Positions 8,730-64,000 of a stretch of DNA of 64,000 nt are shown here, piece by piece (position 1 is the first letter of the stretch; every line of letters begins with the position of its first letter). Both the position numbers and the translations under genes were made by a program. The DNA comes from Gammaproteobacteria bacterium (GTDB taxonomy: Bacteria; Pseudomonadota; Gammaproteobacteria; UBA4575): NCBI GenBank assembly GCA_965243395.1, contig CBDEUS010000001.1:224001-288000 (forward strand), read 5' to 3'. The notes under the pieces were generated by a model that was not told where the DNA came from, ran no database searches, and saw only the letters and a list, made by a program, of their open reading frames with translations.

Positions 8730-8757
8730 ATTTCCGCTTTCGGCCAATAACGGACAT
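8730..8757 (-). repeat. Solo 28-bp site (A type)
   Basis: atttccgcttt-cggcca-ataacggacat. Confidence 0.85.
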
Positions 8758-8767
8758 TTGTTCAAAA

Positions 8768-9139
8768 TTAATTACGACGTTTTCGTGGTTTAGCAACTAC
8801 TTGCCAACCATCTTCATAAATAATGATTCCTGGATCATCTGTTTTTAATGTATCTATGATAATTCCATGTTCTTCAAGTATAGCTTTTATAGCCCAAATT
8901 CTTTTTAGTGGCTCCTTAGCCTCGGGTTTAAACCAAGAAATTGCTCTAAAATGCTCTTCATCCTTTAATTCTGGAGGACTCTTTAAATGCTCCTTCAACC
9001 ATTCAATATTTTTTAATAATTCATTTTCTAAATACGTTTCTAGCTTTAAGCTATCTCTTAGCTCAAATGCAATTTGGAAAATTCCTAGATAGCTATTACT
9101 GCCTTTATTCTTAATTCGTCCTTGAAATCGGATAAACAT
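8768..9139 (-). CDS. Cassette gene: hypothetical protein
   Basis: 123-aa ORF bounded by sites. Confidence 0.7.
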   Translation of the reverse strand: MFIRFQGRIKNKGSNSYLGIFQIAFELRDSLKLETYLENELLKNIEWLKEHLKSPPELKDEEHFRAISWFKPEAKEPLKRIWAIKAILEEHGIIIDTLKTDDPGIIIYEDGWQVVAKPRKRRN

Positions 9140-9162
9140 TCTTCAAATTATTTTAATTTACA

Positions 9163-9263
9163 ATGTCCGCTTTGGGTCGTTAGGAGACATTTTGCGCTTG
9201 TATGTAATTGATTCCAACCTACCACTTCTCATTTTATGACTGCTTTCGGCCATTAGCGGTCAT
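9163..9263 (-). repeat. Doublet site (45-bp linker)
   Basis: atgtccgcttt-gggtcg-ttaggagacat +45 bp+ atgactgcttt-cggcca-ttagcggtcat; the upstream gene's TGA lies in the arm. Confidence 0.9.
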
Positions 9264-9655
9264 TTGGAGTAATGAAATTGTTTATAAACTATCGTTGCAA
9301 CACTAATATTTATTAAAACAAATATTAACCCTGGGATAAGACTTATAATGCTGTTTTGAAATCCAAAAAACTTCCAGTCTGTATTTATAATTTCATATAT
9401 CCACCATCCAGTATTAAATAACACTATTAAGTAGAAAATATATTGAGACCAGTTTCTATTCGCGAATAAAGCAATACCAGCTACCAAATATGGCATAGCG
9501 TAAAAAACAAACTTCCAATGTTTGTAAACATAAGCACCCCACAGCAGATATACTCCAGCAAGAATAACAGCTAAAATTGCCAACCATTTTCCCAAAGAAC
9601 TTGTCTTGTTATTTTCTCCTAATTCACTATTTGGTGTTGAATACGGATTATCCAT
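9260..9655 (-). CDS. Cassette gene: membrane protein (~4 TM)
   Basis: MDNPYSTP leader and four hydrophobic segments; stop overlaps the site arm. Confidence 0.72.
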   Translation of the reverse strand: MDNPYSTPNSELGENNKTSSLGKWLAILAVILAGVYLLWGAYVYKHWKFVFYAMPYLVAGIALFANRNWSQYIFYLIVLFNTGWWIYEIINTDWKFFGFQNSIISLIPGLIFVLINISVATIVYKQFHYSK

Positions 9656-9674
9656 CTGATTTATTTTATTAATA

Positions 9675-9775
9675 ATGTCTGCTTTGGGTCGTTACCAGAC
9701 ATTTTGCTCTTGTATGCTGTTGAATCCAACCGATTGCGTCCCATTTTTTGTCTCCTTTCGGCCATAAGCGGACAT
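9675..9775 (-). repeat. Doublet site (45-bp linker)
   Basis: atgtctgcttt-gggtcg-ttaccagacat +45 bp+ ttgtctccttt-cggcca-taagcggacat. Confidence 0.9.
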
Positions 9776-10258
9776 TCAATAACCGTAATATTTTGGGTTC
9801 TCTAAAACAGAACGAGCAGTTTCTTTAGCTTGTTCAGAAGTAAACTTTGCGCGAATAAGAACACCAACAGCACAATTTTCGTCTTTTCTTTTTATGCAAT
9901 TTTCAAACTCATCAGATAAGTTGAAAAACCAAAGTCTTTCATTAACTGTCATTCCTTTGTAACTTTCACTAAACCAAATATCCCATTCAAAATCCTTATC
10001 ATCAATTTTATAACTATCCCCACCCATAACTACATCAATTGCTTGCAAGTATTCATTTTGAGTTAATTCGCATGGCTCCCATTTTATATCTGTACCCAAT
10101 TTCCCATCATCAAATCCTCTTTTAAGTAAAAAATTAATTGTCGTTAAAGAGGGCCAATGCGCCATTTTCTTACAGTAAATAAATGATAAACCCAACTCGA
10201 ATAATCTAGCAGTGCTCTGATGTCCAGATTCAATTATTTGCACATTGTGGAGTTTCAT
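9776..10258 (-). CDS. Cassette gene: hypothetical protein
   Basis: 160-aa ORF; stop abuts the site. Confidence 0.7.
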   Translation of the reverse strand: MKLHNVQIIESGHQSTARLFELGLSFIYCKKMAHWPSLTTINFLLKRGFDDGKLGTDIKWEPCELTQNEYLQAIDVVMGGDSYKIDDKDFEWDIWFSESYKGMTVNERLWFFNLSDEFENCIKRKDENCAVGVLIRAKFTSEQAKETARSVLENPKYYGY

Positions 10259-10273
10259 TTTTCTAAATTTAAA

Positions 10274-10374
10274 ATGTCCGCTTTGGGTCGTTACCTGACA
10301 TTTTGAACTGGTATGTCTTTGTTTCCAACCTGTTTCATCCTAAATTATGTCTTCTTTCGGCCAGAAGCGGTCAT
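10274..10374 (-). repeat. Doublet site (45-bp linker)
   Basis: atgtccgcttt-gggtcg-ttacctgacat +45 bp+ atgtcttcttt-cggcca-gaagcggtcat. Confidence 0.9.
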
Positions 10375-10805
10375 TCAATAGTTTTACAGAAAGGCGGATT
10401 GTTGTTTGCGGATTCCAAGCTATTTGGATTTGTAAATGGCCAAATATTTCTATCAAAACCGTTATATTCTTTTGGGAAAAAGCCAAACGTGAATATTCTA
10501 ACTATGCCTCTTACGCAAGCTTTTATTCCTGTTTTTTTAGGCCATAAATATTCATAGTCAGATTTCAAGAATAGAATTACCCTAGCTAATTCTCTTTTAT
10601 GTTCATCTGGTATGCGCCAGTCACCTTTGAGCTTGTGAGTCTTAAAATCATCGTAAAGTGGCCAGCCTGCTTGCCACCATATTTCGTAAATAGCAAGGTC
10701 ATCTGATTCAGGAAGACGGCTTTCAAATTCAAAATTATCTATTTGCCCAGAATAGAAATGTCTTAATAATTCAGCAAATTTGTCTCGTGCTTTTCTATCA
10801 ATCAT
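10371..10805 (-). CDS. Cassette gene: hypothetical protein
   Basis: 144-aa ORF; TGA inside the site arm. Confidence 0.7.
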   Translation of the reverse strand: MIDRKARDKFAELLRHFYSGQIDNFEFESRLPESDDLAIYEIWWQAGWPLYDDFKTHKLKGDWRIPDEHKRELARVILFLKSDYEYLWPKKTGIKACVRGIVRIFTFGFFPKEYNGFDRNIWPFTNPNSLESANNNPPFCKTIE

Positions 10806-10815
10806 TTTTTTGCGA

Positions 10816-10916
10816 ATGTCCGCTTTGGGTCGTTACCGGACATTTTGCTCTTGTATGTAATTGATTCCAATCTACTACTTCTCATTTTTTGACTGCTTTC
10901 GGCCAATAGCGGTCAA
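10816..10916 (-). repeat. Doublet site (45-bp linker)
   Basis: atgtccgcttt-gggtcg-ttaccggacat +45 bp+ ttgactgcttt-cggcca-atagcggtcaa. Confidence 0.9.
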
Positions 10917-11308
10917 AATCTATGTTCATTATCATGATTAATTTTTCCAGTTCCATCATGATATAAATCTAGAACTACTAATCCAGAACCATCGTTACAA
11001 AAGTGTCTTGTTCCATTTTCTAACTCTTCATTTCTGGGGCAAAATATAGCAAGGCTTGTTACTTTATCTGGATCATATTTAAAAGTCGCATACACCAAGT
11101 TCGTATCAATATTATGTTGTTCGTGTATATCAGTAGCGCTTTTCGGCAAGTACTCTGGTAGCCACCCAGCAATCATCATGCCTGCTTCTTTTGCTTCATC
11201 GTAAGTTGAAAAATGAGACTCTGTATTTTCCCAATTTTTGCACCACGAAATTGATAGAAGAATAAGAATTAAGCTACCCGCGATTACTATAATAGATGAC
11301 TTAACCAT
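10913..11308 (-). CDS. Cassette gene: exported hypothetical protein (YbbD-like)
   Basis: N-terminal anchor; GWLPEYLPKSATDIHEQHNIDTN; TGA inside the site arm. Confidence 0.65.
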   Translation of the reverse strand: MVKSSIIVIAGSLILILLSISWCKNWENTESHFSTYDEAKEAGMMIAGWLPEYLPKSATDIHEQHNIDTNLVYATFKYDPDKVTSLAIFCPRNEELENGTRHFCNDGSGLVVLDLYHDGTGKINHDNEHRF

Positions 11309-11329
11309 GATGGATTGCGTATTAAGCTA

Positions 11330-11440
11330 ATGTCCGCTTTGGGTCGTTAGCAGTCATTTTATGTTTGAGTTTTTGTGATTCCAACCTAATTTCCCCCTGA
11401 GTGGTCTAGATCATGTCCGCTTTCGGCCAATAGCAGTCAT
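11330..11440 (-). repeat. Doublet site (55-bp linker)
   Basis: atgtccgcttt-gggtcg-ttagcagtcat +55 bp+ atgtccgcttt-cggcca-atagcagtcat. Confidence 0.9.
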
Positions 11441-11444
11441 TTCT

Positions 11445-11945
11445 TTATTTATTCTCGAGTAATTGTTTTAACTTATCCTCTGCAGCTTGAAGTTCATTTT
11501 CTAAATTTTTAACACGATCATGATATCCTTGAGTAAACCTGGTCGATCCACTTGAAAGTATGCCTGATGTACCTATTCGCTCACCTGGAAGTGGCTCTAT
11601 TCCTTTTTCTAATACCTCTTTTTTATTGGCTATATCTTGCCTCGTTGCTTTTATCTCAGCATCGCGTTTTTTGCGAGCACTAATTCTTTCGTTTATACGC
11701 TGACTTATGTTGTCATGTTGTTTCTTAATCTCTTTCTGTTTTACCTTAGTTTTACTTGCAGGAATAGTATTCGCATCTTGTAAGTCTATCTCTTCAATAT
11801 TGTTTGTATTATTTGGTGGGACAGAGGTATAAACGGTTTTACCATTTTCATCCACATATTTATAAACTTTTGACTGCGAATAAGCAGCAATTGTATACAT
11901 GAGCAAAAAGACAACTATAATTGAATTATTGAATCTATTATTCAC
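11445..11945 (-). CDS. Cassette gene: DUF4124-like exported protein
   Basis: Signal peptide, then VYKYVDENGKTVYTSVPP and a coiled coil. Confidence 0.8.
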   Translation of the reverse strand: MNNRFNNSIIVVFLLMYTIAAYSQSKVYKYVDENGKTVYTSVPPNNTNNIEEIDLQDANTIPASKTKVKQKEIKKQHDNISQRINERISARKKRDAEIKATRQDIANKKEVLEKGIEPLPGERIGTSGILSSGSTRFTQGYHDRVKNLENELQAAEDKLKQLLENK

Positions 11946-12054
11946 TTGATTTCCAAATAAATTATTTAGATTGAAATCATTTTATAGGTCATTATCACTA
12001 CATTTAGATGTCCATTTCACAATAATACGAATGTAATGTATTTTTCTGTTGCAA

Positions 12055-12082
12055 ATATCCGCTTTAGATCGTTAGCAGGCAT
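12055..12082 (-). repeat. Degenerate 28-bp site (B-like) at the array head
   Basis: atatccgcttt-agatcg-ttagcaggcat. Confidence 0.7.
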
Positions 12083-21332: not shown

Positions 21333-21443
21333 ATGTATGCATTGGATAATAAGCAGACATTTTAAGTTTATAAATTATTGAATCTAACCTGACATTCTCC
21401 TCAATGGTTTAATTTATGACAACTTACGGCCAATAGCAGGCGT
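21333..21443 (-). repeat. Degenerate orphan doublet site (55-bp linker)
   Basis: atgtatgcatt-ggataa-taagcagacat +55 bp (contains ttgaatctaacc)+ atgacaactta-cggcca-atagcaggcgt. Confidence 0.7.
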
Positions 21444-27252: not shown

Positions 27253-28497
27253 TTAAATATCATTTAACAAAGCCACAGCCGCAGCCTTATGCTCAGGCGC
27301 TAAATGTGCATAGCGTAGCGTCATGGATAGCTCTGAATGACCAAGCAATTCACGTACAGTATTTAAATCAACACCTGCCATGACTAACTTGCTCGCAAAG
27401 TGGTGTCGTAAATCATGAAAGCGAAAGTCTTTTATCTGAGAAGTCTTTCGTAGGTTTTCCCAAGCGGTTTGAATGTTATCGAAACGTTTACCTGTATTAG
27501 GATTAGGGAATACAAATCTCTTTGATTCAGTCTGATTTCTCCAAGCGATTAACGTACCCAGTGCTTCATCGTTTAGAGGGATGTGACGTGTTGAACCTGA
27601 TTTAGATGAAACACCTTCAACAGTTATGTTTCTTTTCTTGAGATCGACGTTTTCCCATCGAAGATCAAACAACTCACCTCTGCGCATACCTGTGTTTATG
27701 GCTACTAGAATCATGGGCTTTAAGTAATCAGCAAATGACTTTTTGCTTAAATCTTCTAATAGTTTCTTGCCTCTAGCTGCTCTCCAATCATTTCCAGATT
27801 GTCTATCCTTGATAATACTTTTCTCTCTAGAATCTAATGCTTTTCTGAGTCTCTTTTCTTCATCATCCGTCAAGTAGCGTATCTTTCCTTTACTATCGAC
27901 CTTTAAAGGTTTGACCTTTGTAAGAGGGTGCTTGTTAATAACTCCCCATTCGAGTGCTTTAGATAAGACGGCTTTCAACGCCATCAACTGACGATTAACC
28001 GTTGAGGGTTTGAGACCCTCCTTAATTTCCACAGTCCGCCACTTTTGTATTTCCCATGGAGTGATTTCTTCCATATTGTGTTTCATAAGATGAGGGAAGG
28101 CGAGGTTAAGTTTCTTGAGAGTTTCCTCACCCGATTTACGTTCGACGAGTACCCAAGGTTTATATTTATTCTCGATGAACTTGCCTAGGACTTGATGCTT
28201 TCTGGCTTCACTTCTTTTCTTGGCTGATTTTTTGTTTTCTTGAATGTCCTGGCCTTTGGCTAATTCACCTATTTTGATCTTTGCATGTTCACGAGCTTGA
28301 TCAGCAGTCAGTTTGCCATACTTGCCTAAGGTGTATTCTTTACCTGAACCATTGTGACGATAGTAAATACAAAAGCTTTTCACTCCGCTTGGCATGACGC
28401 GTAAGAAGAATCCAGGCTGTTCGGTATCCCAAACCTTGTAGTACTTAGATCGTGGCTTAAAAGCCTTTACAGTGCGTGTCGTAAGCTTCTCTTTCAC
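27253..28497 (-). CDS. int: Tyrosine integrase with N-terminal arm-binding domain
   Basis: TGMRRGEL (R), SKSG (K), FHDLRH (HxxR), LLGHS, RYAH (Y); N-terminal WD...GFFLRV.PSG.KS...TLGKYG. Confidence 0.96.
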   Translation of the reverse strand: MKEKLTTRTVKAFKPRSKYYKVWDTEQPGFFLRVMPSGVKSFCIYYRHNGSGKEYTLGKYGKLTADQAREHAKIKIGELAKGQDIQENKKSAKKRSEARKHQVLGKFIENKYKPWVLVERKSGEETLKKLNLAFPHLMKHNMEEITPWEIQKWRTVEIKEGLKPSTVNRQLMALKAVLSKALEWGVINKHPLTKVKPLKVDSKGKIRYLTDDEEKRLRKALDSREKSIIKDRQSGNDWRAARGKKLLEDLSKKSFADYLKPMILVAINTGMRRGELFDLRWENVDLKKRNITVEGVSSKSGSTRHIPLNDEALGTLIAWRNQTESKRFVFPNPNTGKRFDNIQTAWENLRKTSQIKDFRFHDLRHHFASKLVMAGVDLNTVRELLGHSELSMTLRYAHLAPEHKAAAVALLNDI

Positions 28498-57399: not shown

Positions 57400-57672
57400 T
57401 TGTCTGCAATGGAACTGCATGGTTGGAATAGTTGTAAACACATAACTCCAGAAATAAAACAGCAACCAAATAATAGAATCGCATCTGATCCTATTTGGTT
57501 ATTACTTGTAGATGGTACCGTTCTAGGTCATACGGTACGGTGTTTTTTAGATAGTAAAACAGAAATATCATGGGGCGGGATTAAAAAAGAGCTTGTTTCA
57601 CATTGGGCTTACAACATTCCTCCACCACTTCCTAATGAATTTACACCTAAAAAAATAAAGAAAACTGTTTAA
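57400..57672 (+). CDS. Hypothetical protein
   Basis: 90-aa ORF; start uncertain. Confidence 0.4.
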   Translation: MSAMELHGWNSCKHITPEIKQQPNNRIASDPIWLLLVDGTVLGHTVRCFLDSKTEISWGGIKKELVSHWAYNIPPPLPNEFTPKKIKKTV

Positions 57673-57868
57673 GGTTTGATTGACGAGTGATAAATATAAA
57701 TATTTGGATCTCGCAGACATTGATAAGTTAAACTTAAGCTCAGAAGCGGGGATTAGGACTGTAGAAAAATTATAATTTCTTTGAAGTTTGGGAGAAGTGA
57801 TAATGTTTACTTAAGACTCAAAGTAGACATTTTCTGTAAGTGTTATGCCAACATAATATAGGTGCTTT

Positions 57869-58225
57869 ATGCGAAATATAGTAAATATTGTCGTTGTATA
57901 TATTACAGTCACAACTTTGATTATTGGCCAAACTATGCCAGCTTATGCAGGGCTTGTGGGTACAGATCAAATTTTACTAGAGGAAGTGACAAGTCAGGAT
58001 CGAGAAGTTCTGTATGAAATTTTCAATCGTAGCGATGCTCAGAAATTATTAGAAAAGAGTGGTGTTTCTAATAAACAAGCACATGAGCGAATAGCAGCTC
58101 TTACCGATGAGGAAGTAAGGATGTTCGCACAAAATTTTGAAGAACTTCCAGCAGGCGGTGTAGGCAATGCTGCGGCCATACTAATTTTAGTTTTGCTAAT
58201 AATTGTTCTTGCACTTGGAAATTGA
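57869..58225 (+). CDS. PA2779-like exported protein
   Basis: AGLVGT.Q, GVS...A..RIAALTDEE, LPAGG followed by a hydrophobic tail. Confidence 0.75.
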   Translation: MRNIVNIVVVYITVTTLIIGQTMPAYAGLVGTDQILLEEVTSQDREVLYEIFNRSDAQKLLEKSGVSNKQAHERIAALTDEEVRMFAQNFEELPAGGVGNAAAILILVLLIIVLALGN

Positions 58226-58335
58226 GAGCATTAGCGGATTTAGACATGTCCGCTCTCGAGCCAAAGTATGAGCACATAGAAGTGCGAACATGATGTACAT
58301 CGTGGACGATGTCTCTGGTTCTGTTCTTAATTAGA

Positions 58336-58363
58336 ATGTCTGCTTTCGGCCCAAAGCGGACAT
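58336..58363 (+). repeat. Solo 28-bp site (B-like)
   Basis: atgtctgcttt-cggccc-aaagcggacat. Confidence 0.85.
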
Positions 58364-58394
58364 AATTTGGTTTAATAATTCTTGGAATACTCCT

Positions 58395-58967
58395 ATGAAG
58401 CATCATGCCCTTGGTCTAGCGTTAATCTTAATTTTTACGATCCCAAAAATATGTTTAAGTGTAGATCAAGATTTCTATACAAACTTACGGTTAGAATTTT
58501 CTCAACGTGAAAATTATGATGCACTCTGGCATGTATCCTCGGAGCGGAAAGATATTTTTCAAGCTATTAAAGATAAAAACTATGAACTTACGGCAAGCAA
58601 GTCCAAAGTTTGGTTAGATAAATATCCAATCGATGCTGAAATTCATTATATTGCTGCACTTTCCAACGATAATTTAGGTAATCTTCAAGAATCAACTTAC
58701 CATTATTCGAATTTTTATGGTTTATTGAACTCTTTATTGCAATCAGGTGACGGATTATCATCAGAAACAGCGATACAAGTTATTTCAACAGCAGAGGAAT
58801 ATTTAGTAATCCAATTTATTGGTGGAAAATTTATTGAGCAATCTTTGATTCAAGGTAAATGCACTGCATATGATCAAATGGAGATTGAGATTAATGGCGA
58901 AAAGAGAAAAATGTATTTTGATGTAGCAATTCCTCTAACAGGAAAACCCGCCAAGCTTGATTGCTAA
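58395..58967 (+). CDS. Cassette gene: DUF4919-like exported protein
   Basis: Signal peptide; LL.S.L.SGDG.S.ETA..VI...EEY, YD, YFDV. Confidence 0.7.
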   Translation: MKHHALGLALILIFTIPKICLSVDQDFYTNLRLEFSQRENYDALWHVSSERKDIFQAIKDKNYELTASKSKVWLDKYPIDAEIHYIAALSNDNLGNLQESTYHYSNFYGLLNSLLQSGDGLSSETAIQVISTAEEYLVIQFIGGKFIEQSLIQGKCTAYDQMEIEINGEKRKMYFDVAIPLTGKPAKLDC

Positions 58968-58981
58968 TTCAATTTTAATAA

Positions 58982-59082
58982 TTGACCGCTTTTGGCCGAA
59001 AGGAGACATAAAATGGTATGCAGTTGGTTGGTATCAACAAATTACAAACTTAAAATGTCCGGTATCGACCCGAAGCGGACAT
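58982..59082 (+). repeat. Doublet site (45-bp linker)
   Basis: ttgaccgcttt-tggccg-aaaggagacat +45 bp+ atgtccggtat-cgaccc-gaagcggacat. Confidence 0.9.
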
Positions 59083-59130
59083 AAACTTGAATCATAATTA
59101 ATCTCTGTAAAGAAATCTGGAAGTTTTAAA

Positions 59131-59514
59131 TTGGCACATAATCTTGAAATAAATAAGCAGAATGCCATTGCATTTTATAAGACTGCCTATAACGGTGAAC
59201 CACGAAAAGCAGTTGAGCAATATGTCGGTGATGAATACATACAACACAATCCTGATGTAAAAGATGGTAAAGAGGGATTTATTGAATACTTTGAAGCAAT
59301 GGCAAGAGAGTATCCAAACAAAAGCATTGAATTTGTTCGCTCAATTGCAGAAGGCAACTTGGTGTCATTACACACTTACCAAACTTGGCCAGGAAATGAT
59401 GAATATGTAACGATGGATTTTTTCAGGTTTGATGATAATGGAAAAATTGTGGAGCATTGGGATTCAGTGCAACAGATACCAAACGAATCAGCGAATGATA
59501 ATAATATGTACTGA
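59131..59514 (+). CDS. Cassette gene: SnoaL/NTF2-like protein
   Basis: YIQHNP.V.DG..GF, IAEGNLV..H, DFFRFD..GKIVEHWD. Confidence 0.88.
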   Translation: MAHNLEINKQNAIAFYKTAYNGEPRKAVEQYVGDEYIQHNPDVKDGKEGFIEYFEAMAREYPNKSIEFVRSIAEGNLVSLHTYQTWPGNDEYVTMDFFRFDDNGKIVEHWDSVQQIPNESANDNNMY

Positions 59515-59530
59515 TAGTTGTTCTTTTTAC

Positions 59531-59558
59531 ATGTCCGTTATCGACCCAAAGCGGACAT
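59531..59558 (+). repeat. Solo 28-bp site (B type)
   Basis: atgtccgttat-cgaccc-aaagcggacat. Confidence 0.88.
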
Positions 59559-59575
59559 TTTTACGAAGTATAAAG

Positions 59576-60268
59576 ATGAAAAGTATAAGGAATATTTTAT
59601 ACAGTTTATCAATGGCTTTTGTTGTAAGTTGCGGTACTCCTGGTGTTGTTAATGAAATTAAAGTTGAACCTGTTAAAGAATCTAAGTGGGAGAATACTAG
59701 TTGGTCGCTAAATTTTATGTTTATTTGGCCAGTATATGAGAAAAAAGAACAAACTAATAAGGATTTGAGTGTTAGCGAAACAAATGAAAAAGAATTAGTG
59801 ATACACGGCCCGAAGCCAGCAAGTGAATTTGACCTAAGCGAAAATTTAAAAGCTGGCTTATCACGTTTTAGAGAAGATTTTTTCAATCAGCTGCCAATGA
59901 GTGCATCACTTAAAAAATCAGATGCTGATTACGATGTTGTTATAACTTTTACAATCAAAGACACACGTGGTCCTATTTATGTTGATGAAAAGGATTTAGA
60001 AATTGCAAAAAGAGCAGTAGATATAGATTTACTTACACCTATTGATCTTTTAGTAAAAGCTGACTTTGATGTGCTATATGATTTAACTACAAGCACAGGT
60101 GATGTGTTTCAAAAAAGCTACACTGTAATTGATTCAGTTGATCATCAGGAAAGTAGGTATGGAAGAAAATCAAATAGCCATATAGAACTATTGTCTAAGA
60201 AGATTTTTCGCAATCAAACTTTGAAAACTTCTAATAAATTTCTTGAAGAAGCTGCTAAAAAATTATAA
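59576..60268 (+). CDS. Cassette gene: hypothetical lipoprotein
   Basis: Start moved to MKSIRN (17 bp after the site); VVSC lipobox. Confidence 0.7.
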   Translation: MKSIRNILYSLSMAFVVSCGTPGVVNEIKVEPVKESKWENTSWSLNFMFIWPVYEKKEQTNKDLSVSETNEKELVIHGPKPASEFDLSENLKAGLSRFREDFFNQLPMSASLKKSDADYDVVITFTIKDTRGPIYVDEKDLEIAKRAVDIDLLTPIDLLVKADFDVLYDLTTSTGDVFQKSYTVIDSVDHQESRYGRKSNSHIELLSKKIFRNQTLKTSNKFLEEAAKKL

Positions 60269-60272
60269 ATAA

Positions 60273-60373
60273 ATGTCCGCTATTGGCCGAAAGTAGTCAT
60301 AAAACAGGATGAACTAGGTTGGAATCAATAAGATGCAATCTTAAAATGTCCGGTAACAAACCATAGCAGACAT
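60273..60373 (+). repeat. Doublet site (45-bp linker)
   Basis: atgtccgctat-tggccg-aaagtagtcat +45 bp+ atgtccggtaa-caaacc-atagcagacat. Confidence 0.88.
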
Positions 60374-60407
60374 TGCTTGTTTGCATCTTGTATGAGGTAT
60401 ATTCCAA

Positions 60408-60905
60408 ATGAATAAAGTAATAATACTTACGTTAATTATTTCAATATCGACTCTTTGTTTTGCAGACGAACTTACTCAGGAGAAGAGAGAAGATATTTTG
60501 TATTTATTAGAAAGATCAGGAAGTTTAGATGTTGGGTTAGAACTAGCTACAAATATTACCCAACAATTTAATCAAGTTTTAAGTCAAACAAATAAAGATA
60601 TTCCTAAGAATGTGTTCGTAGTTTTGCAAGAAGAATTAGAAATACTTTTGAAAGAAGAAACAGGCAAAAATGGGGGGCTTACTGATATTTCAATTAATGT
60701 GTATCACGATCACTTTACTCACGATGAAATAAAGCAACTCAATAAGTTCTATGATTCACCTATTGGTCAAAAACTGGCAGCTCGCACGCCCACGATAGCG
60801 AGAGAATCAATGATCGCAAGTCAGAAATGGGCTGAGAACATGCAGCCTTTGCTAGTAGATCGTGCGTTAACTGTTTTACGTTCTCAAGGCTATAATTTTG
60901 AATGA
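60408..60905 (+). CDS. Cassette gene: DUF2059-like exported protein
   Basis: Signal peptide; VY..HFT..EI..L..FY.SP.GQK; TGA in the site arm. Confidence 0.85.
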   Translation: MNKVIILTLIISISTLCFADELTQEKREDILYLLERSGSLDVGLELATNITQQFNQVLSQTNKDIPKNVFVVLQEELEILLKEETGKNGGLTDISINVYHDHFTHDEIKQLNKFYDSPIGQKLAARTPTIARESMIASQKWAENMQPLLVDRALTVLRSQGYNFE

Positions 60906-60929
60906 CCGCTAACGATCCAAAGCGGACAC
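60902..60929 (+). repeat. Solo 28-bp site (B-like)
   Basis: atgaccgctaa-cgatcc-aaagcggacac. Confidence 0.88.
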
Positions 60930-60935
60930 TATTTA

Positions 60936-61247
60936 GTGAAATATCAACTTGTTATTCAATTTCCAGCTGAGTCTCAAAATGACTTCGACAATCTTATCGA
61001 AATTGAGAATGAATTAATAAAAAAGTTAACTGGTGACTCAGAAGTTGATGGGCATGATTTCGGAAGTGGAGAAATGAATATATTCATCTTCACGAATGAG
61101 CCTAATAAAACATTTAGTCATGTCATTACTATGTTAACAAGTAGAGATGAAAATATTTCGAATATGAAAGCTGGCTATAGAGTCATTGAAGATGAGGATT
61201 TCACTGTACTGTGGCCTAATGATCTAACAGAATTTGTAGTACGATGA
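60936..61247 (+). CDS. Cassette gene: hypothetical protein
   Basis: 103 aa, VDGHDFGSGEMNIFI; TGA in the site arm. Confidence 0.75.
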   Translation: MKYQLVIQFPAESQNDFDNLIEIENELIKKLTGDSEVDGHDFGSGEMNIFIFTNEPNKTFSHVITMLTSRDENISNMKAGYRVIEDEDFTVLWPNDLTEFVVR

Positions 61248-61271
61248 CCGCTAACGACCCAAAGCGGATAT
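61244..61271 (+). repeat. Solo 28-bp site (B type)
   Basis: atgaccgctaa-cgaccc-aaagcggatat. Confidence 0.88.
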
Positions 61272-61303
61272 TAGTTAATATTAATATCTAACAAAATACT
61301 ACT

Positions 61304-61645
61304 GTGTCTATTAAATTTCACTTCATGCTTGGATTGATATTATTGGCATTGTATGGATTATTTTTATTTAAAATTGAATCTATTCTTCCGTATTTTTATG
61401 ATGTATTAAGTGGAGATGTGCGCTCCAGTGGCCCTAGATACACCTATTGGGCCATTTGTATAGTTCTTGTTTTACCTTCAGTTTCAGTGTTCTTCTTTCT
61501 TTTTGGAAATAAAGTCAGTGATTGGTTATCTATGTACGTAAGACATGGTGATTTTTATACTAAAGGAGTGATTTATTTATTTGGATACATCAGTCTAATG
61601 TTTTCAGTAATAGTTATATTCTTATTTAAGTTAATAGAATATTAA
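61304..61645 (+). CDS. Cassette gene: 3-TM membrane protein
   Basis: Three hydrophobic segments; TAA overlaps the first base of the next site. Confidence 0.65.
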   Translation: MSIKFHFMLGLILLALYGLFLFKIESILPYFYDVLSGDVRSSGPRYTYWAICIVLVLPSVSVFFFLFGNKVSDWLSMYVRHGDFYTKGVIYLFGYISLMFSVIVIFLFKLIEY

Positions 61646-61672
61646 TATCTGCTATTGGTCGAAAGGAGACAA
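61645..61672 (+). repeat. Solo 28-bp site (A-like)
   Basis: atatctgctat-tggtcg-aaaggagacaa. Confidence 0.78.
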
Positions 61673-61678
61673 ATTTAA

Positions 61679-61834
61679 ATGGCTAAAGATGAATCGTTAG
61701 AAAAGTTTGAAAAAGAATACGAAGAAACTCGTAAGAAAATTGAAGAGATTGAAGATAAGGCGCTTCGGAAAATTAGGAAAAAAGACCGATCAAACAGTAA
61801 CGGTGATAATGGAATTGGTGACCGCCCTGAATGA
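61679..61834 (+). CDS. Cassette gene: 51-aa peptide resembling sigma70 region 4.2
   Basis: Manual translation MAKDESLEKFEKEYEETRKKIEEIEDKALRKIRKKDRSNSNGDNGIGDRPE*; AGGAG SD supplied by the site arm; TGA in the next site arm. Confidence 0.7.
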   Translation: MAKDESLEKFEKEYEETRKKIEEIEDKALRKIRKKDRSNSNGDNGIGDRPE

Positions 61835-61858
61835 CCGCTAATGGCCGAAAGCAGAAAT
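61831..61858 (+). repeat. Solo 28-bp site (A type)
   Basis: atgaccgctaa-tggccg-aaagcagaaat. Confidence 0.85.
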
Positions 61859-61870
61859 TACACTAAATAA

Positions 61871-62284
61871 ATGTTCAATCTAAAAAATAAAATTTTCTTG
61901 ATTGCTCTGATCGTTGGATTAGTGCTTTTATTAATTGGTTGTTCAAAATCTCATGATCTCGATATAGATAAAATTACCTCAATTACTGTTACCCATCTTG
62001 GTGACAATGATTCATTAAATGATCTGATAGAGTTTTGTGTGGGGACGTCAGAACTATCCAATACTAAGAAATGGCTTAGACACAATAGGGACGATTGGAA
62101 ATCTCACATAGATACAGAACCAGCAGGAAAATTATTAATATCAGGTCACGGATTTAGGCTAAATGTTGGTGATTCGTGGGTGATAATGATTTGTGATCAT
62201 GATGACGGAGAAACTCATCGATTAACAAAAACTATATCTCCTGCGGAATTTAGTTATTTGGATAAATCTGAAAAATTACAATGA
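61871..62284 (+). CDS. Cassette gene: hypothetical lipoprotein
   Basis: LIGC lipobox; TGA in the site arm. Confidence 0.72.
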   Translation: MFNLKNKIFLIALIVGLVLLLIGCSKSHDLDIDKITSITVTHLGDNDSLNDLIEFCVGTSELSNTKKWLRHNRDDWKSHIDTEPAGKLLISGHGFRLNVGDSWVIMICDHDDGETHRLTKTISPAEFSYLDKSEKLQ

Positions 62285-62381
62285 CCGCTTATGGCCGAAA
62301 GCAGTCATAATTTAAGGTGAACTAGGTTGGATTCAATAAAATACCGGCACAAGATGTTTGGCATTGACCCAAAGATGACAT
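62281..62381 (+). repeat. Doublet site (45-bp linker)
   Basis: atgaccgctta-tggccg-aaagcagtcat +45 bp+ atgtttggcat-tgaccc-aaagatgacat. Confidence 0.88.
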
Positions 62382-62482
62382 GATTTATGCCATTCAGTAT
62401 TTAGCTGATTGGTTGGAATAAAATTTAGTGCCAATATCATTATCTTCGCACATAGGGGAAATTCACATATCGGGAGTATTCC

Positions 62483-63148
62483 ATGAAAACTAAGTTAGCT
62501 TTTGTAATTGTATTATTACTTGGTGGTTGCCAAACACCAAATGTTCCAGATGATTTTAGCTTTGAGCCAAGCGCTGATAAAAATACAGGAATTATAATTG
62601 GTTCAGTGACTCAAAATAATGATGTTTCGAATGCTACTGTGGCAGATTTCAGAATTGATCATCAATTAAAAAAAGATACAAAACTTTTGTACTCAATGAA
62701 CACTAATGAGCTGTTGGGCGGATTTGCAAATAAGTTTGGATTTGAAGAAGGAAATCTTGGTGGACGTATGTTCGTTGTGGAAGTTGAAGAAGGAGATCAC
62801 CAGTTAGATTACTGGTCGATAAATCACAACAATAACTACCTCATTATTTATCCAAAAGTACCGCCGCCAAAACTTGAATTTAGTTTAGAACATGGACAAA
62901 TTATGTATATTGGTAATTTTCATATAGATATCGTAGCAGAAAAGAATTTTTTAGGCGCGTTATTGCCCCTAGGTGGAGAGCCATCAATAAATAATAAATA
63001 TCCTAGAGATATAGAATTAATATATGAAAAATACCCTCAGCTTAAGGATAAAGAAATAACCATAAATGTCTTACATGAAGGCACATGGATAAACGAGATT
63101 CATGAAGAGGAAGAATTAGAAATACCTACATCCAAAGAACAGTCATGA
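62483..63148 (+). CDS. Cassette gene: hypothetical lipoprotein
   Basis: LGGC lipobox; GIIIGSV...F....G...YIG. Confidence 0.72.
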   Translation: MKTKLAFVIVLLLGGCQTPNVPDDFSFEPSADKNTGIIIGSVTQNNDVSNATVADFRIDHQLKKDTKLLYSMNTNELLGGFANKFGFEEGNLGGRMFVVEVEEGDHQLDYWSINHNNNYLIIYPKVPPPKLEFSLEHGQIMYIGNFHIDIVAEKNFLGALLPLGGEPSINNKYPRDIELIYEKYPQLKDKEITINVLHEGTWINEIHEEEELEIPTSKEQS

Positions 63149-63828
63149 AAAATATCATTATTTTTTTAGCATGTATTTTATTGGTCAAATTCGCTTATGC
63201 AAATGAGTCGAATCGAGATATTCCAGACCCTCAAAAAATTATAGATGCATATAATAATGCCGAGTGCTGCATTTTCATTGATCAACTTAAACCTACAAAG
63301 CTAGATAAACGGACCAGACTAGATTTATATCTCTATGAGTCAAAAAATCTTCTTGAACTATCTACTGGACCAACTTTTGCAGCCCTTGTGGAAATTCCAC
63401 TAAGTAATAAAAAAGAGAGATACGAAGTCGAGACTAACGTTATGCATGTAGGTGATGATTTATATGTATATTTTCCTTATGTAGCATTTTTGAATGATGA
63501 ACTAAAGTTATTAGGCACATCTGATTTCACACATAGTAATTATAGTGGTAAGTCTTTATTTCAACCAACAGGAATTTTGAATTTTAATTTCAATCTTGAT
63601 CCAAATTTAAAAGGCGATGAAGCAGTAAGATATCTCTTAATCTACACACGTAAAAAACATTTTTCACAAAATACTACAGATCAATTGAAAGAAGAATCTC
63701 GAAATGTCAGATTGAAAGAAATATCTCTAGAGTATGCAAACACTGTAAGCGAATACATTCAAAGAGACTTGCTTTATGGATTGCCTGGAGGAAAGGTGAG
63801 CGTATCAAATAAAGGCAAGTTTTTTTAA
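63145..63828 (+). CDS. Cassette gene: exported protein (weak MalM-like resemblance)
   Basis: Signal peptide; ATGA overlap with the previous gene; YFP.VAFL, RYLLIYT. Confidence 0.6.
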   Translation: MKNIIIFLACILLVKFAYANESNRDIPDPQKIIDAYNNAECCIFIDQLKPTKLDKRTRLDLYLYESKNLLELSTGPTFAALVEIPLSNKKERYEVETNVMHVGDDLYVYFPYVAFLNDELKLLGTSDFTHSNYSGKSLFQPTGILNFNFNLDPNLKGDEAVRYLLIYTRKKHFSQNTTDQLKEESRNVRLKEISLEYANTVSEYIQRDLLYGLPGGKVSVSNKGKFF

Positions 63829-63860
63829 GTCAATAAATATCTAATTATAATTTGAATTGA

Positions 63861-63888
63861 TTGGCCGCTTACGACCCAAAGCGGACAT
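63861..63888 (+). repeat. Solo 28-bp site (B type)
   Basis: ttggccgctta-cgaccc-aaagcggacat. Confidence 0.85.
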
Positions 63889-64000
63889 CCGACTATTGCC
63901 ATTCGAGCTATAAAATTATCCATACACACCATTTTGCTTACATTGAAGAATTGTTGGAGTATGCTGAATTCTCAATAATTTAAAAATAATTAGTATTAAT

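Follow-up and report, generated by a model that had tools for sequence, protein, structure and literature searches.

Twenty-eight-nucleotide sites bordering putative mobile gene cassettes in a gammaproteobacterial genome

In the stretch of 64,000 nucleotides of gammaproteobacterial DNA which was analysed as a whole (the window), a gene for GTP cyclohydrolase I (folE) is followed by ten co-oriented plus-strand open reading frames lying between copies of a 28-nucleotide imperfect palindrome. The chance is about one in two that these 28-mers are recognition sites in double-stranded DNA which border mobile single-gene cassettes and at which an enzyme acting in trans would move them. A cassette system comparable to integrons or dif modules is the best reading of the data, its main rival being a REP- or MITE-like repeat possibly related to QMITE2 of Coxiella.

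The array and its sites

The site has the layout ATGWCYGCT, a 10-nucleotide centre and AGCGGACAT, and can be read as 11-6-11 in the style of the core sites of tyrosine recombinases. The original prediction of 14 sites separating ten plus-strand genes downstream of folE holds, the first site being decayed. All 14 are 28-mers, but they fall into two classes according to their centre, CGACCC in class A and TGGCCG in class B. Within each class one arm is better conserved than the other. Class B may or may not be an inverted form of A: over the whole site its reverse complement outscored the forward sequence in 63 of 87 cases, but on the arms alone in only 39 of 87, which weakens a comparison with dif sites. 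A fuzzy consensus search yielded 19 matches in the window compared with none in 100 shuffles. With a scoring matrix derived from strong copies within the same genome, 13 of the 14 sites of this array were strong (17.7–46.5 bits), and the decayed site 1 (58246..58273, plus strand, repeat family D5), which has kept only its left arm and centre, reached 4.9 bits. A further weak copy (57803..57830, plus strand, 14.7 bits forward and 0.1 reverse) is possibly the true start of the array. Between this copy and site 1 lies a gene of the DUF6627 family (57869..58225, plus strand, Pfam PF20332, 4.9e-22), which has paralogues at C1:288083, just beyond the end of the window, and at C1:159096; its homologue is followed by a site in the related genome G012 and has no sites in G014.

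All features of the array proper are on the plus strand. Site 2 (class A, 58336..58363, 46.5 bits) precedes the first cassette gene (58395..58967), an open reading frame assigned to DUF4919 by Pfam with a signal peptide-like N-terminus. Site 3 (class B, 58982..59009, 31.6 bits) and site 4 (class A, 59055..59082, 42.6 bits) form a doublet around a conserved 45-nucleotide spacer (59010..59054, TTGGTA-17-TAAAAT) and are followed by a SnoaL-like gene (59131..59514, Pfam), site 5 (class A, 59531..59558, 44.8 bits) and a lipoprotein-like gene without Pfam family (59576..60268). At the next junction site 6 (class B, 60273..60300, 35.8 bits), a 45-nucleotide spacer with TTGGAA-17-TAAAAT (60301..60345) and the partly decayed site 7 (class A, 60346..60373, 29.3 bits) lead to a DUF2059 gene (60408..60905, Pfam), the TGA stop of which is contained in site 8 (class A, 60902..60929, 40.2 bits). 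In the same way the fifth gene (60936..61247, 103 amino acids, without family) takes its TGA stop from site 9 (class A, 61244..61271, 44.6 bits). Then come a gene for a 113 amino acid membrane protein (61304..61645), the partly decayed B-like site 10 (61645..61672, 21.8 bits forward and 26.9 reverse), a frame of 51 amino acids without a family match (61679..61834) which has its TGA stop in site 11 (class B, 61831..61858, 39.2 bits), and a lipoprotein-like gene of 137 amino acids (61871..62284) which has its own in site 12 (class B, 62281..62308, 39.8 bits). A more diverged 45-nucleotide spacer (62309..62353) and the decayed A-like site 13 (62354..62381, 17.7 bits) complete the third doublet. 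The last unit (62483..63828) consists of two frames overlapping by 4 nucleotides, 62483-63148 for a lipoprotein-like protein of 221 amino acids and 63145-63828 for a weakly MalM-like protein of 227 amino acids, and is closed by site 14 (class A, 63861..63888, 40.1 bits). Pfam scanning of the ten proteins gave DUF4919, SnoaL, DUF2059 and the MalM-like match, the latter below threshold, and left five of the ten without a family.

Doublets composed of a B site, 45 nucleotides and an A site thus occur at three junctions of the array. They measure 101 nucleotides, with inverted repeat-like ends and a conserved core, and B stands before A in all ten doublets of the genome. Twenty-six copies of the spacer, taken from three genomes and two genera, show it to be conserved; it carries a promoter-like motif, in the two forms given above for two window doublets. 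The abundant doublets may represent 73-bp gene-less cassettes with an outward promoter-like motif, which would function as a promoter.

Intercistronic hairpins acting in the transcript, by termination, stabilisation or processing, might also be located at gene 3′ ends in the orientation of the genes, and a stem of 9 bp is possible in the site, with a terminator-like call on two copies. The pairing data speak against this explanation. No excess of pairing over shuffles was seen at any of 11 arm pairs, compensatory changes are absent, and pair 6-23 showed a deficit, being paired in 50 of 79 sites as compared to 56.7 ± 2.1 in shuffles. As the arms do not co-vary, recognition of duplex DNA by a protein is suggested, and not a hairpin maintained by selection. 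Single sites fold only weakly as DNA (−0.5 to −5.9 kcal/mol), one fold out of three being no better than shuffles, the site has no match in Rfam, and the unpaired centre is conserved to the same degree as the arms. RNA hairpins, which would moreover leave cassette turnover and sequence identity across phyla unexplained, are a very improbable explanation.

Copies in the genome, in relatives and in other phyla

The prediction that the sites occur at several loci is supported by about 100–120 copies in 24 clusters of the genome. The matrix scan found 119 positions scoring 12 bits or more compared with none in the shuffled genome, and 103 copies had at least 18 bits. Array 1 of the window (8730-12082) is on the minus strand and hence in the opposite orientation; the polarity of sites to genes is identical in both arrays, and blastp found no gene common to them at E≤1e-3, all as foreseen. 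In almost all copies of the genome the orientation of the site matches that of the flanking genes, and neighbouring sites point the same way in 70 of 76 pairs. A same-strand frame of at least 45 codons ended between −45 and +12 of the site at 53 of 79 strong sites versus 18 of 79 in mirror orientation, and in 12 of the 79 the TGA within the site is the stop codon of the upstream gene. Gene-sized intervals between sites (n=60, median 530 nucleotides) were filled to at least 60% by a sense frame in 47 cases and by an antisense frame in eight. Arrays form 3′ of housekeeping operons and in the orientation of the operon, as seen 3′ of rpoD in this genome and 3′ of nuoN in G012, where 16 kb hold about 30 regular units of A, gene, B and 45 nucleotides; classes A and B alternate in such regular arrays. 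One cassette of the G012 array contains the integron-associated Cass2 domain.

Content between the sites differs among relatives. The original prediction had asked for homologues enclosed by the same 28-mers with other neighbours, and two cassettes which have homologues in relatives provide them. The SnoaL gene has a homologue between sites in G004 (72.6% amino acid identity), and the 113 amino acid membrane protein gene has one in G010 (52%) as a lone insert of A, gene and B. The hot spot of this insert is empty in G009, G007 and G003, with 7–10 nucleotides and no site, while G008 holds a leader and a lone A site, G004 a leader, an A site and two genes, and G002 two opposite-strand cassettes. 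A doublet or lone site without a gene is found in G008 and in the genome of the window (at the hot spot as a lone site or decayed doublet). At an orthologous locus of the window's genome and G012 the flanks are 86% identical, the cassettes are different, and the aligned blocks stop at the first site. A metagenome contig of 649 nucleotides differs from cassette 3 at ten positions over 616 nucleotides and diverges from the window from base 7 of site 5, in the left arm, outward. Among 40 relatives no homologue was found at E≤1e-8 for the first gene of cassette 9 (221 amino acids), nor for the DUF2059 gene of cassette 4 except one weak 27% match. No target-site duplication was visible at the insertions read. 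Neither an excised circle nor a site-to-site deletion was seen; the joints found have sides of 20–31 nucleotides and perhaps belong to other loci.

With the cassette borders evidenced by one metagenome contig and two diverged homologue pairs (52–73% amino acid identity), these comparisons support the view that the units between sites behave as swappable gene cassettes. An enzyme encoded elsewhere, or lost from this genome, would cut and rejoin at the sites, and any unit lying between two of them could then drop out, be acquired or be exchanged for another. These few border data suggest that the left arm would remain with the upstream gene, which often takes the TGA of the site as its stop codon, and that centre and right arm would move with the downstream unit. 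As the empty alleles of the hot spot have no resident site, the first colonisation of a locus cannot be a simple site-by-site recombination, which counts against this view.

The same observations can be given another explanation, which is possible at odds below even: the 28-mers and the 101-nucleotide doublets would be selfish REP/BIME- or MITE-like repeats, possibly relatives of QMITE2, which colonise gene 3′ ends independently, the genes between them being ordinary accessory genes turned over otherwise, for example when repeats or flanks recombine homologously. Such elements would produce short imperfect palindromes at the 3′ ends of genes, two classes paired in doublets with a conserved spacer, and, at the hot spot, a lone site or decayed doublet with no gene beside it, as a self-mobile repeat would leave. 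The strict polarity of sites and genes in co-oriented arrays of up to about 30 units, the joint presence or absence of gene and sites at the hot spot, the flanking sites retained by homologous cassettes in new contexts, the arms free of compensatory changes and the lack of a visible target-site duplication at the insertions read count against the repeats.

The distribution over bacteria bears on both readings. The exact site was found in records of Alpha-, Beta- and Gammaproteobacteria, Acidobacteriota, Verrucomicrobiota and Chloroflexota; at least 119 stretches carry the exact pattern, and they come from several phyla. Within the genus 13 of 14 genomes have sites. As these stretches span phyla, and the exact pattern was met in only nine of 401 genomes sampled evenly across the class, the distribution is patchy and horizontally spread, in favour of the cassette reading. 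Near-identity across phyla is not known from REP families and was counted against the repeats. In high-GC Alphaproteobacteria, however, many copies adjoin ordinary large genes, such as those of ABC binding proteins and histidine kinases, as repeats would.

Search for the enzyme

No recombinase gene was found beside this array, as had been stated, nor beside four other arrays or the annotated single-cassette loci. The genome is 100% complete and gave no matches to Y1 transposases, resolvases, IS110 or rve. Five tyrosine recombinases (PF00589) are encoded, two of Xer type and three, probably of phage type, with 414–444 amino acids, and none of them borders an annotated array. The one of these three that was scanned, the integrase of the window (414 amino acids), is phage P4-like, with P4-type arm-binding domains according to Pfam. 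The suggestion that the enzyme may be encoded past position 64000 was not upheld: no recombinase was found in the next 14 kb, which hold a paralogue of DUF6627, a protein with a glycine zipper, an EAL-HDOD gene, a thiolase and a second mini-array of four genes. The further sites sought there are present, the series starting again 3.6 kb beyond the end of the window. Sites at many loci and no recombinase next to them agree with the prediction, but action in trans is an inference. That no enzyme was found counts against the cassette reading, as does G007, which has sites and only two tyrosine-recombinase matches.

Absence of a neighbouring recombinase would also suit selfish repeats. In G022 an IS110-family gene is separated from a doublet by about 85 nucleotides, and in G014 one lies about 170 nucleotides away from a degenerate site, as might be expected of repeats. 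The RAYT family, on the other hand, is absent from the genome of the window and occurs in one of 14 genus genomes, as against sites in 13 of 14; as stem pairing is not maintained either, RAYT-associated REPs were rejected as an identity of the sites.

The host recombinases XerC and XerD could move the units at dif-like sites, as in the dif modules of Acinetobacter. To this the 28 bp readable as 11-6-11, the better conserved arm of each class and the alternation of A and B around genes would correspond, and both Xer-type genes of the genome are located 2.5–3.5 kb from small site clusters. In some site-bearing genomes, such as G007 with two matches, Xer-type proteins are the sole tyrosine recombinases found. 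This explanation is nevertheless improbable. The canonical dif-like site of the genome, at C1:959290, shares with the A and B consensus 5–6 of 11 bases in one arm, 0–1 of 6 in the centre and 4 of 11 in the other arm, for which reason the sites were rejected as dif, and G014 has both Xer genes and no site at up to two mismatches.

Least probable of all, and hardly to be believed, is an ordinary array of integron cassettes lacking the integrase (CALIN), even if the cassette architecture, the Cass2 domain in G012 and a true integron integrase in the related genome G015 would fit it. The 16 kb surrounding the integrase of G015 contain no 28-mer reaching 14 bits, although 173 pattern matches were found elsewhere in that genome. 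An NCBIfam scan of one Xer-type gene (131 bits against the integron-integrase model, cut-off 265) and Pfam analysis of the window integrase disclosed no integron-integrase candidate in the genome of the window. Sites of the attC type measure 57–141 nucleotides and are conserved in structure. The present sites were rejected as attC since they have 28 nucleotides, are conserved in sequence, lack arm covariation and contain no inverse core sites (no GTTRRRY/RYYYAAC pair by direct reading). The comparison with attC clusters drawn in the original prediction is therefore retained as an analogy only.

A more far-reaching form of the cassette reading is doubtful and is put forward tentatively. It would be a third bacterial system of cassette capture, free of IntI and Xer, with a 28-bp core site almost identical from phylum to phylum, a not yet recognised recombinase family or host factor acting in trans, numerous small arrays built 3′ of housekeeping operons, and 73-bp gene-less promoter cassettes.

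Relation to known systems

Integrons are the textbook route for stockpiling and shuffling single genes; another, still poorly understood, is that of dif modules. A further cassette system would widen known gene capture if its own site, its reach across phyla and its dozens of insertion points hold. It would provide a simple sequence tag for accessory genes in metagenomes and would point to an activity that recombines DNA at a compact target of 28 bp.

With integron arrays and CALINs (IntI, attI, attC), for which see Cury et al. 2016 (PMC4889954), the arrays share rows of small genes which are mostly single, often orphan and all in one orientation, a recombination-type site abutting or overlapping the stop codon, content varying between relatives, and arrays without an adjacent integrase. 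Co-oriented, mostly promoterless single-frame cassettes varying among strains were found here as well, and the gene-less units with promoter-like motifs have a parallel in the promoter cassettes without open reading frame reported in integrons (PMC6557892). The differences are a 28-nucleotide site conserved in sequence across phyla, without inverse core motifs, arm covariation or IntI, and about two dozen loci per genome appended to housekeeping operons instead of one platform. The dif modules of Acinetobacter plasmids, with XerC/XerD and pdif sites and a mechanism of movement described as still debated (PMC6449649, PMC13141974, PMC7399989), are alike in their 28-bp two-arm sites with a short centre, their small accessory modules, two alternating forms and the lack of an adjacent dedicated enzyme gene. 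In contrast to them the present sites are unrelated to dif in sequence, chromosomal and found at many loci in several phyla, and the modules are strictly co-oriented single genes.

REP/BIME repeats and Correia-type MITEs are short extragenic imperfect palindromes occurring in two classes and in doublets with a conserved linker; Correia elements carry outward promoter-like motifs, and REPs are insertion targets of IS110/IS1111. All these features have counterparts here, with short extragenic imperfect palindromes in many copies and in two-class doublets. Differences from REP/BIME repeats, for which see Tobes and Pareja 2006 (PMC1525189), are the missing RAYT, the pairing which is not maintained, the strict polarity with genes, the gain and loss of repeats together with genes, and the near-identity of sequence across phyla. 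QMITE2 of Coxiella burnetii is described by Wachter et al. 2018 (PMC5896051) as a MITE of 150–190 bp with 7–11-nucleotide direct repeats, a very stable hairpin and conserved linkage between strains, located mainly in 3′ UTRs and overlapping the last 1–10 bp of genes, with about 50–78 copies, relatives in Bradyrhizobium and Rhodopseudomonas, and a role as IS1111 target. By this description, on which the comparison with the 28-mer is based, QMITE2 and its embedded REP are alike in being a palindromic 3′-UTR repeat over stop codons, in tens of copies and with no known transposase, and these likenesses, together with the IS1111 target, favour the repeat explanation. QMITE2 is, however, not described there as bounding swappable genes. 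Should the 28-mers be repeats of this type after all, they would link such repeats to a wholesale turnover of neighbouring genes.

Sites and genes of the second array

The array studied here, array 2, lies at positions 58246-63888 on the plus strand downstream of folE, the gene for GTP cyclohydrolase I, in G000, the source genome (2.58 Mb, 38% G+C, two contigs, C1 and C2), of which the window covers C1:224001-288000. It contains 14 plus-strand copies of a 28-nucleotide imperfect palindrome with the consensus ATGWCYGCT, ten central bases and AGCGGACAT. With a matrix built from the strong copies of the genome, 13 of the 14 sites scored 17.7-46.5 bits; the first one, which has retained only its left arm and centre, scored 4.9 bits. 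The sites fall into two classes, A with the centre CGACCC and B with the centre TGGCCG, both always on the gene strand. The original prediction held that the same sites recur in this second array, and this is real and far beyond chance, a fuzzy consensus search of the window yielding 19 matches versus none in 100 shuffles. Array 1 (8730-12082, minus strand), which adjoins ychF, follows like site rules, and the two arrays have no protein in common, also as predicted.

Ten plus-strand open reading frames of 51-230 codons are located between the sites of array 2, the last two overlapping as a single unit (62483-63828). Pfam searches assigned DUF4919, SnoaL and DUF2059 domains, plus a MalM-like match below threshold, and found no family for five of the ten scanned proteins, nor for the 51 amino acid frame. 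Judged by eye, the N-termini of several of the proteins resemble signal peptides or lipoprotein signals. A weak site at 57803 (14.7 bits) precedes a DUF6627 gene, and array 2 may therefore start there. Three DUF6627 paralogues were found (window 57869-58225; 2026-2409 of locus L007, cut from the surrounding sequence; G000 C1:159096-159326), two of which bracket array 2, the downstream one being followed by a glycine-zipper gene (17-kDa antigen-like). It had been suggested that the enzyme may lie beyond position 64000, where more sites were also to be looked for. The 14 kb past the window end contain the second DUF6627 gene, the glycine-zipper protein, two small open reading frames, an EAL-HDOD gene and then a mini-array of four genes in which three sites are clear and two decayed, followed by a thiolase gene; no recombinase is present in this stretch.

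Occurrence of sites and doublets

A matrix search of G000 gave 119 positions of at least 12 bits, as compared to none in the shuffled genome, and the 103 sites of at least 18 bits formed 24 clusters. Neighbouring sites were co-oriented in 70 of 76 pairs, and all ten short pairs had the order B then A, with a spacer of 45 nt in eight and 55 nt in two. The 60 gene-sized intervals between sites had a median length of 530 nt; in 47 of them a sense open frame took up 60% or more of the length, and in eight an antisense frame did. At 53 of the 79 strong sites a same-strand open frame (at least 45 codons) ended between -45 and +12 of the site start, versus 18 of 79 in the mirror orientation, and at 12 of the 79 the TGA within the site serves as the stop codon. 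Regular arrays repeat the unit A-gene-B-45 nt, about 30 times after nuoN in the related genome G012 and 13 times or so after rpoD in G000. The genes flanking annotated arrays are housekeeping genes (ychF, folE, rpoD, nuoN, scpB/rluB, a response regulator). An AraC/GyrI-like cassette protein of the 30-unit array (146-1096 of locus L021, from contig C1 of G012) matched Cass2, the 'integron-associated effector binding protein' domain.

The 101-nt doublets consisting of a B site, 45 nt and an A site could be aligned without gaps in all 26 cases from G000, G012 and G022, the last belonging to a different genus. Their spacer is strongly conserved, with TTGGAA (21 of 26 by hand count of the alignment rows), 17 nt and a yAAAAT that overlaps the A site at its start, and alpha- and betaproteobacterial loci have the same two classes paired with a 17-nt spacer. 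A promoter/terminator consensus scan picked out the two best doublet motifs of array 2; the array 2 region as a whole had fewer promoter-like matches than shuffles (20 versus 31.9 +/- 5.4), and the promoter idea therefore rests on the conservation of the spacer and not on the scan. Should each stretch between two sites count as a unit, the one of 73 bp would be a gene-less promoter cassette. Folded as DNA the doublets gave z-scores of -0.4 to -2.2, which did not separate two hairpins from one long hairpin. From the ATG of a class B site followed by AA (e.g., window 62281-62312) a nine-codon frame runs to a TAA, and an ATG in the doublet spacer opens a frame running through the A site; such short frames are probably a by-product of the ATG...CAT arms.

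With up to two mismatches the pattern was found in 22 of 41 relatives (13 of 14 genomes of the genus, 19 of 24 of the family), and with up to one mismatch in only nine of the 401 genomes drawn evenly from the class, G000 included. The five family genomes without it are G014, G016, G017, G018 and G023. Among public genomes, at least 119 stretches had exact matches; the labels among those listed included alphaproteobacterial (Pseudolabrys, Xanthobacteraceae, Hyphomicrobiales, Rhizobium, Phenylobacterium, Sphingomonas), gammaproteobacterial (a Coxiellaceae metagenome-assembled genome (MAG), Lysobacter soli, Pseudoxanthomonas, Pseudomonas) and others (a betaproteobacterium, a deltaproteobacterium, Pyrinomonadaceae, Candidatus Udaeobacter, a Chloroflexota MAG). 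Eight metagenome contigs carried the pattern as regular arrays. It was also present on sixteen viral contigs, many of the matches being at contig ends; these are uninformative and likely stem from flanking host DNA or assembly breaks. A plasmid collection searched with the doublet gave no match, and among public sequencing runs no RNA run was listed as carrying the queried sequence.

The contig ends of G000 itself (C1:1-9348 and C2:1-10404; C1:1272337-1279210 and C2:1292134-1299313) consist of perfect tandem repeats over long stretches (periods 387 and 318 nt), and these are common to both contigs in reverse complement. Probably they are giant genes for repeat proteins, at which the assembly of a single circular chromosome was interrupted.

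Cassette homologues and the borders of the units

Homologues of cassette genes flanked by the same 28-mers and having other neighbours, as expected for moving units, were seen in two cases. The SnoaL gene has a homologue in the relative G004 (72.6% amino acid identity) which is located between an A and a B site next to different genes, and the gene for the 113 amino acid membrane protein has one in G010 (52% identity), a lone A-gene-B insert. The DUF2059 gene and the first gene of the overlapping two-gene unit had no homologue in 40 relatives at E<=1e-8, save one 27% match, and a DNA search of 24 relatives with array 2 returned mostly doublets, many per genome, and few cassette genes.

The state of the G010 insertion spot, which lies between two convergent conserved genes, varies with the species. 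Only 7-10 nt and no site are present there in G009, G007 and G003; G008 combines a leader with a lone A site; the same leader occurs with a decayed site in G000 and with an A site plus two genes in G004, and G002 has two cassettes on the other strand. At the response-regulator locus the flanks of G000 and G012 are 86% identical and the aligned blocks end at the first site, after which come a lipoprotein-like cassette and a glutaredoxin-like gene in G000, and a different 146 amino acid gene in G012. Downstream of folE nothing is conserved in six relatives beyond folE itself (and orf90 in G012), and there is therefore no empty-site comparison at this locus.

A sediment metagenome contig of 649 nt differs from the lipoprotein-like cassette of array 2 (59576-60268) at 10 positions in 616 nt, and the likeness stops at base 7 of the upstream site, with dissimilar sequence from there outward. 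In the SnoaL pair of G000 and G004 the upstream sites resemble each other in centre and right arm, and the downstream sites are of different classes. These few cases suggest that the left arm of a site goes with the upstream unit, and the remainder with the downstream unit. The sides of the joints in the metagenome contigs measure 20-31 nt, and other loci may be their source. A further cassette pair of 90% identity (G000 C1:1064714-1065175 and a metagenome contig), of which the G000 member lacks an upstream site, gave no sharper borders.

The best-supported reading of the arrays, whose probability we put at about one half, is a cassette system that resembles integrons and dif modules in its action, belongs to neither group, and is served by a putative enzyme in trans. 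Simple site-by-site recombination in such a system explains neither the first colonisation of site-free loci nor the gene-less copies, and a self-mobile repeat of the REP or MITE kind is a serious rival, possible rather than probable in our estimate. A RAYT-associated REP was rejected, as the RAYT family was absent from G000 and found in one of 14 genomes of the genus, 13 of which contain sites.

Candidate enzymes and known systems

As predicted, no recombinase adjoins array 2, nor any other annotated array; the trans-acting enzyme proposed along with this is putative. Searches of G000 for resolvases and for IS110-type, rve and Y1 transposases gave no match, and its dispersed repeats comprised tuf, a duplicated binding-protein gene and tandem repeats but no insertion sequence. 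Its five tyrosine recombinases are two Xer-type proteins and three of 414-444 amino acids, the scanned one of which, the window's integrase, is phage P4-like. At 6 kb from this P4-type gene (27253-28497; Arm-DNA-bind_3 and Phage_integrase) there is a decayed doublet (21333-21443; 14.8 and 16.0 bits). In the relative G007, which also carries sites, tyrosine recombinases gave only two matches. A weak lead came from integrases of 341-344 amino acids near sites in G012 and G005, homologous ones of 341-343 amino acids lying 1-2.5 kb off; they were rejected, with no consistent placing of integrase next to site in these genomes and none in G013.

Comparison of all G000 open reading frames with 96 distant loci gave generic families only, plus small FimB-like recombinases (about 200 amino acids) adjoining sites in four, likewise a weak lead. 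These FimB/FimE-like tyrosine recombinases, 51-89% mutually identical, are encoded on three viral contigs (L155 62-691, L162 3083-3688, L167 1685-2287) and at an alphaproteobacterial MAG locus (L065 412-1116). The small recombinases found within the genus (G005, G013, G009, G001) show no relation to them and have no sites nearby. At locus L090 a different 210 amino acid recombinase gene (1350-1982) is found between oppositely oriented sites. Clustering of 80 distant-locus neighbourhoods gave ABC binding proteins, kinases and cyclases as common families; two 'unknown' clusters were antisense artefacts. IS110/IS1111-family transposase genes, a further weak lead, occur at two places: one in G022 is about 85 nt away from a B-A doublet (913-2120 of L187, G022:C1:1730430-1733843), and the other, in G014, whose genome otherwise lacks sites, has a degenerate site at a distance of about 170 nt (1283-2517 of L182, from contig C15). 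IS1111 targets palindromic repeats and attC sites, a habit which these two genes recall.

Single sites fold weakly, and a selected hairpin was dismissed, as none of 11 arm pairs was paired above shuffles and pair 6-23 was below them (50 of 79 versus 56.7 +/- 2.1). All Rfam families searched against 57500-64000 at E<=1 gave only a chance miRNA match, and the sites belong to no known RNA family. The only dif-like match in G000, a canonical dif-like site at C1:959290-959317, has four mismatches to the E. coli motif; the class consensuses share 5-6 of 11, 0-1 of 6 and 4 of 11 bases with it, and a dif-like nature was rejected. An attC site was rejected on the length, motif and conservation pattern of the 28-mer. 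The relative G015 has a true integron integrase (6942-8018 of L194, contig C29; 483 bits on the TIGR02249 integron-integrase model) adjoining a row of small opposite-strand open reading frames; no 28-mer lies within 16 kb of it and 173 pattern matches lie elsewhere, so that a classical integron and the 28-mer system coexist in one genome.

Full-text literature searches on the site, integron-like arrays, MITEs, dif modules and IS1111 targets turned up neither this site nor arrays of the kind. The nearest printed description is that of QMITE2 from Coxiella burnetii, likened here by description and not by sequence (PMC5896051). As described, QMITE2 measures 150-190 bp, carries direct repeats and folds very stably, and it is not presented as a cassette border (PMC5896051). 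It is a palindromic repeat of 3' UTRs which extends over stop codons and serves as a target of IS1111; relatives of it are reported from Bradyrhizobium and Rhodopseudomonas (PMC5896051).
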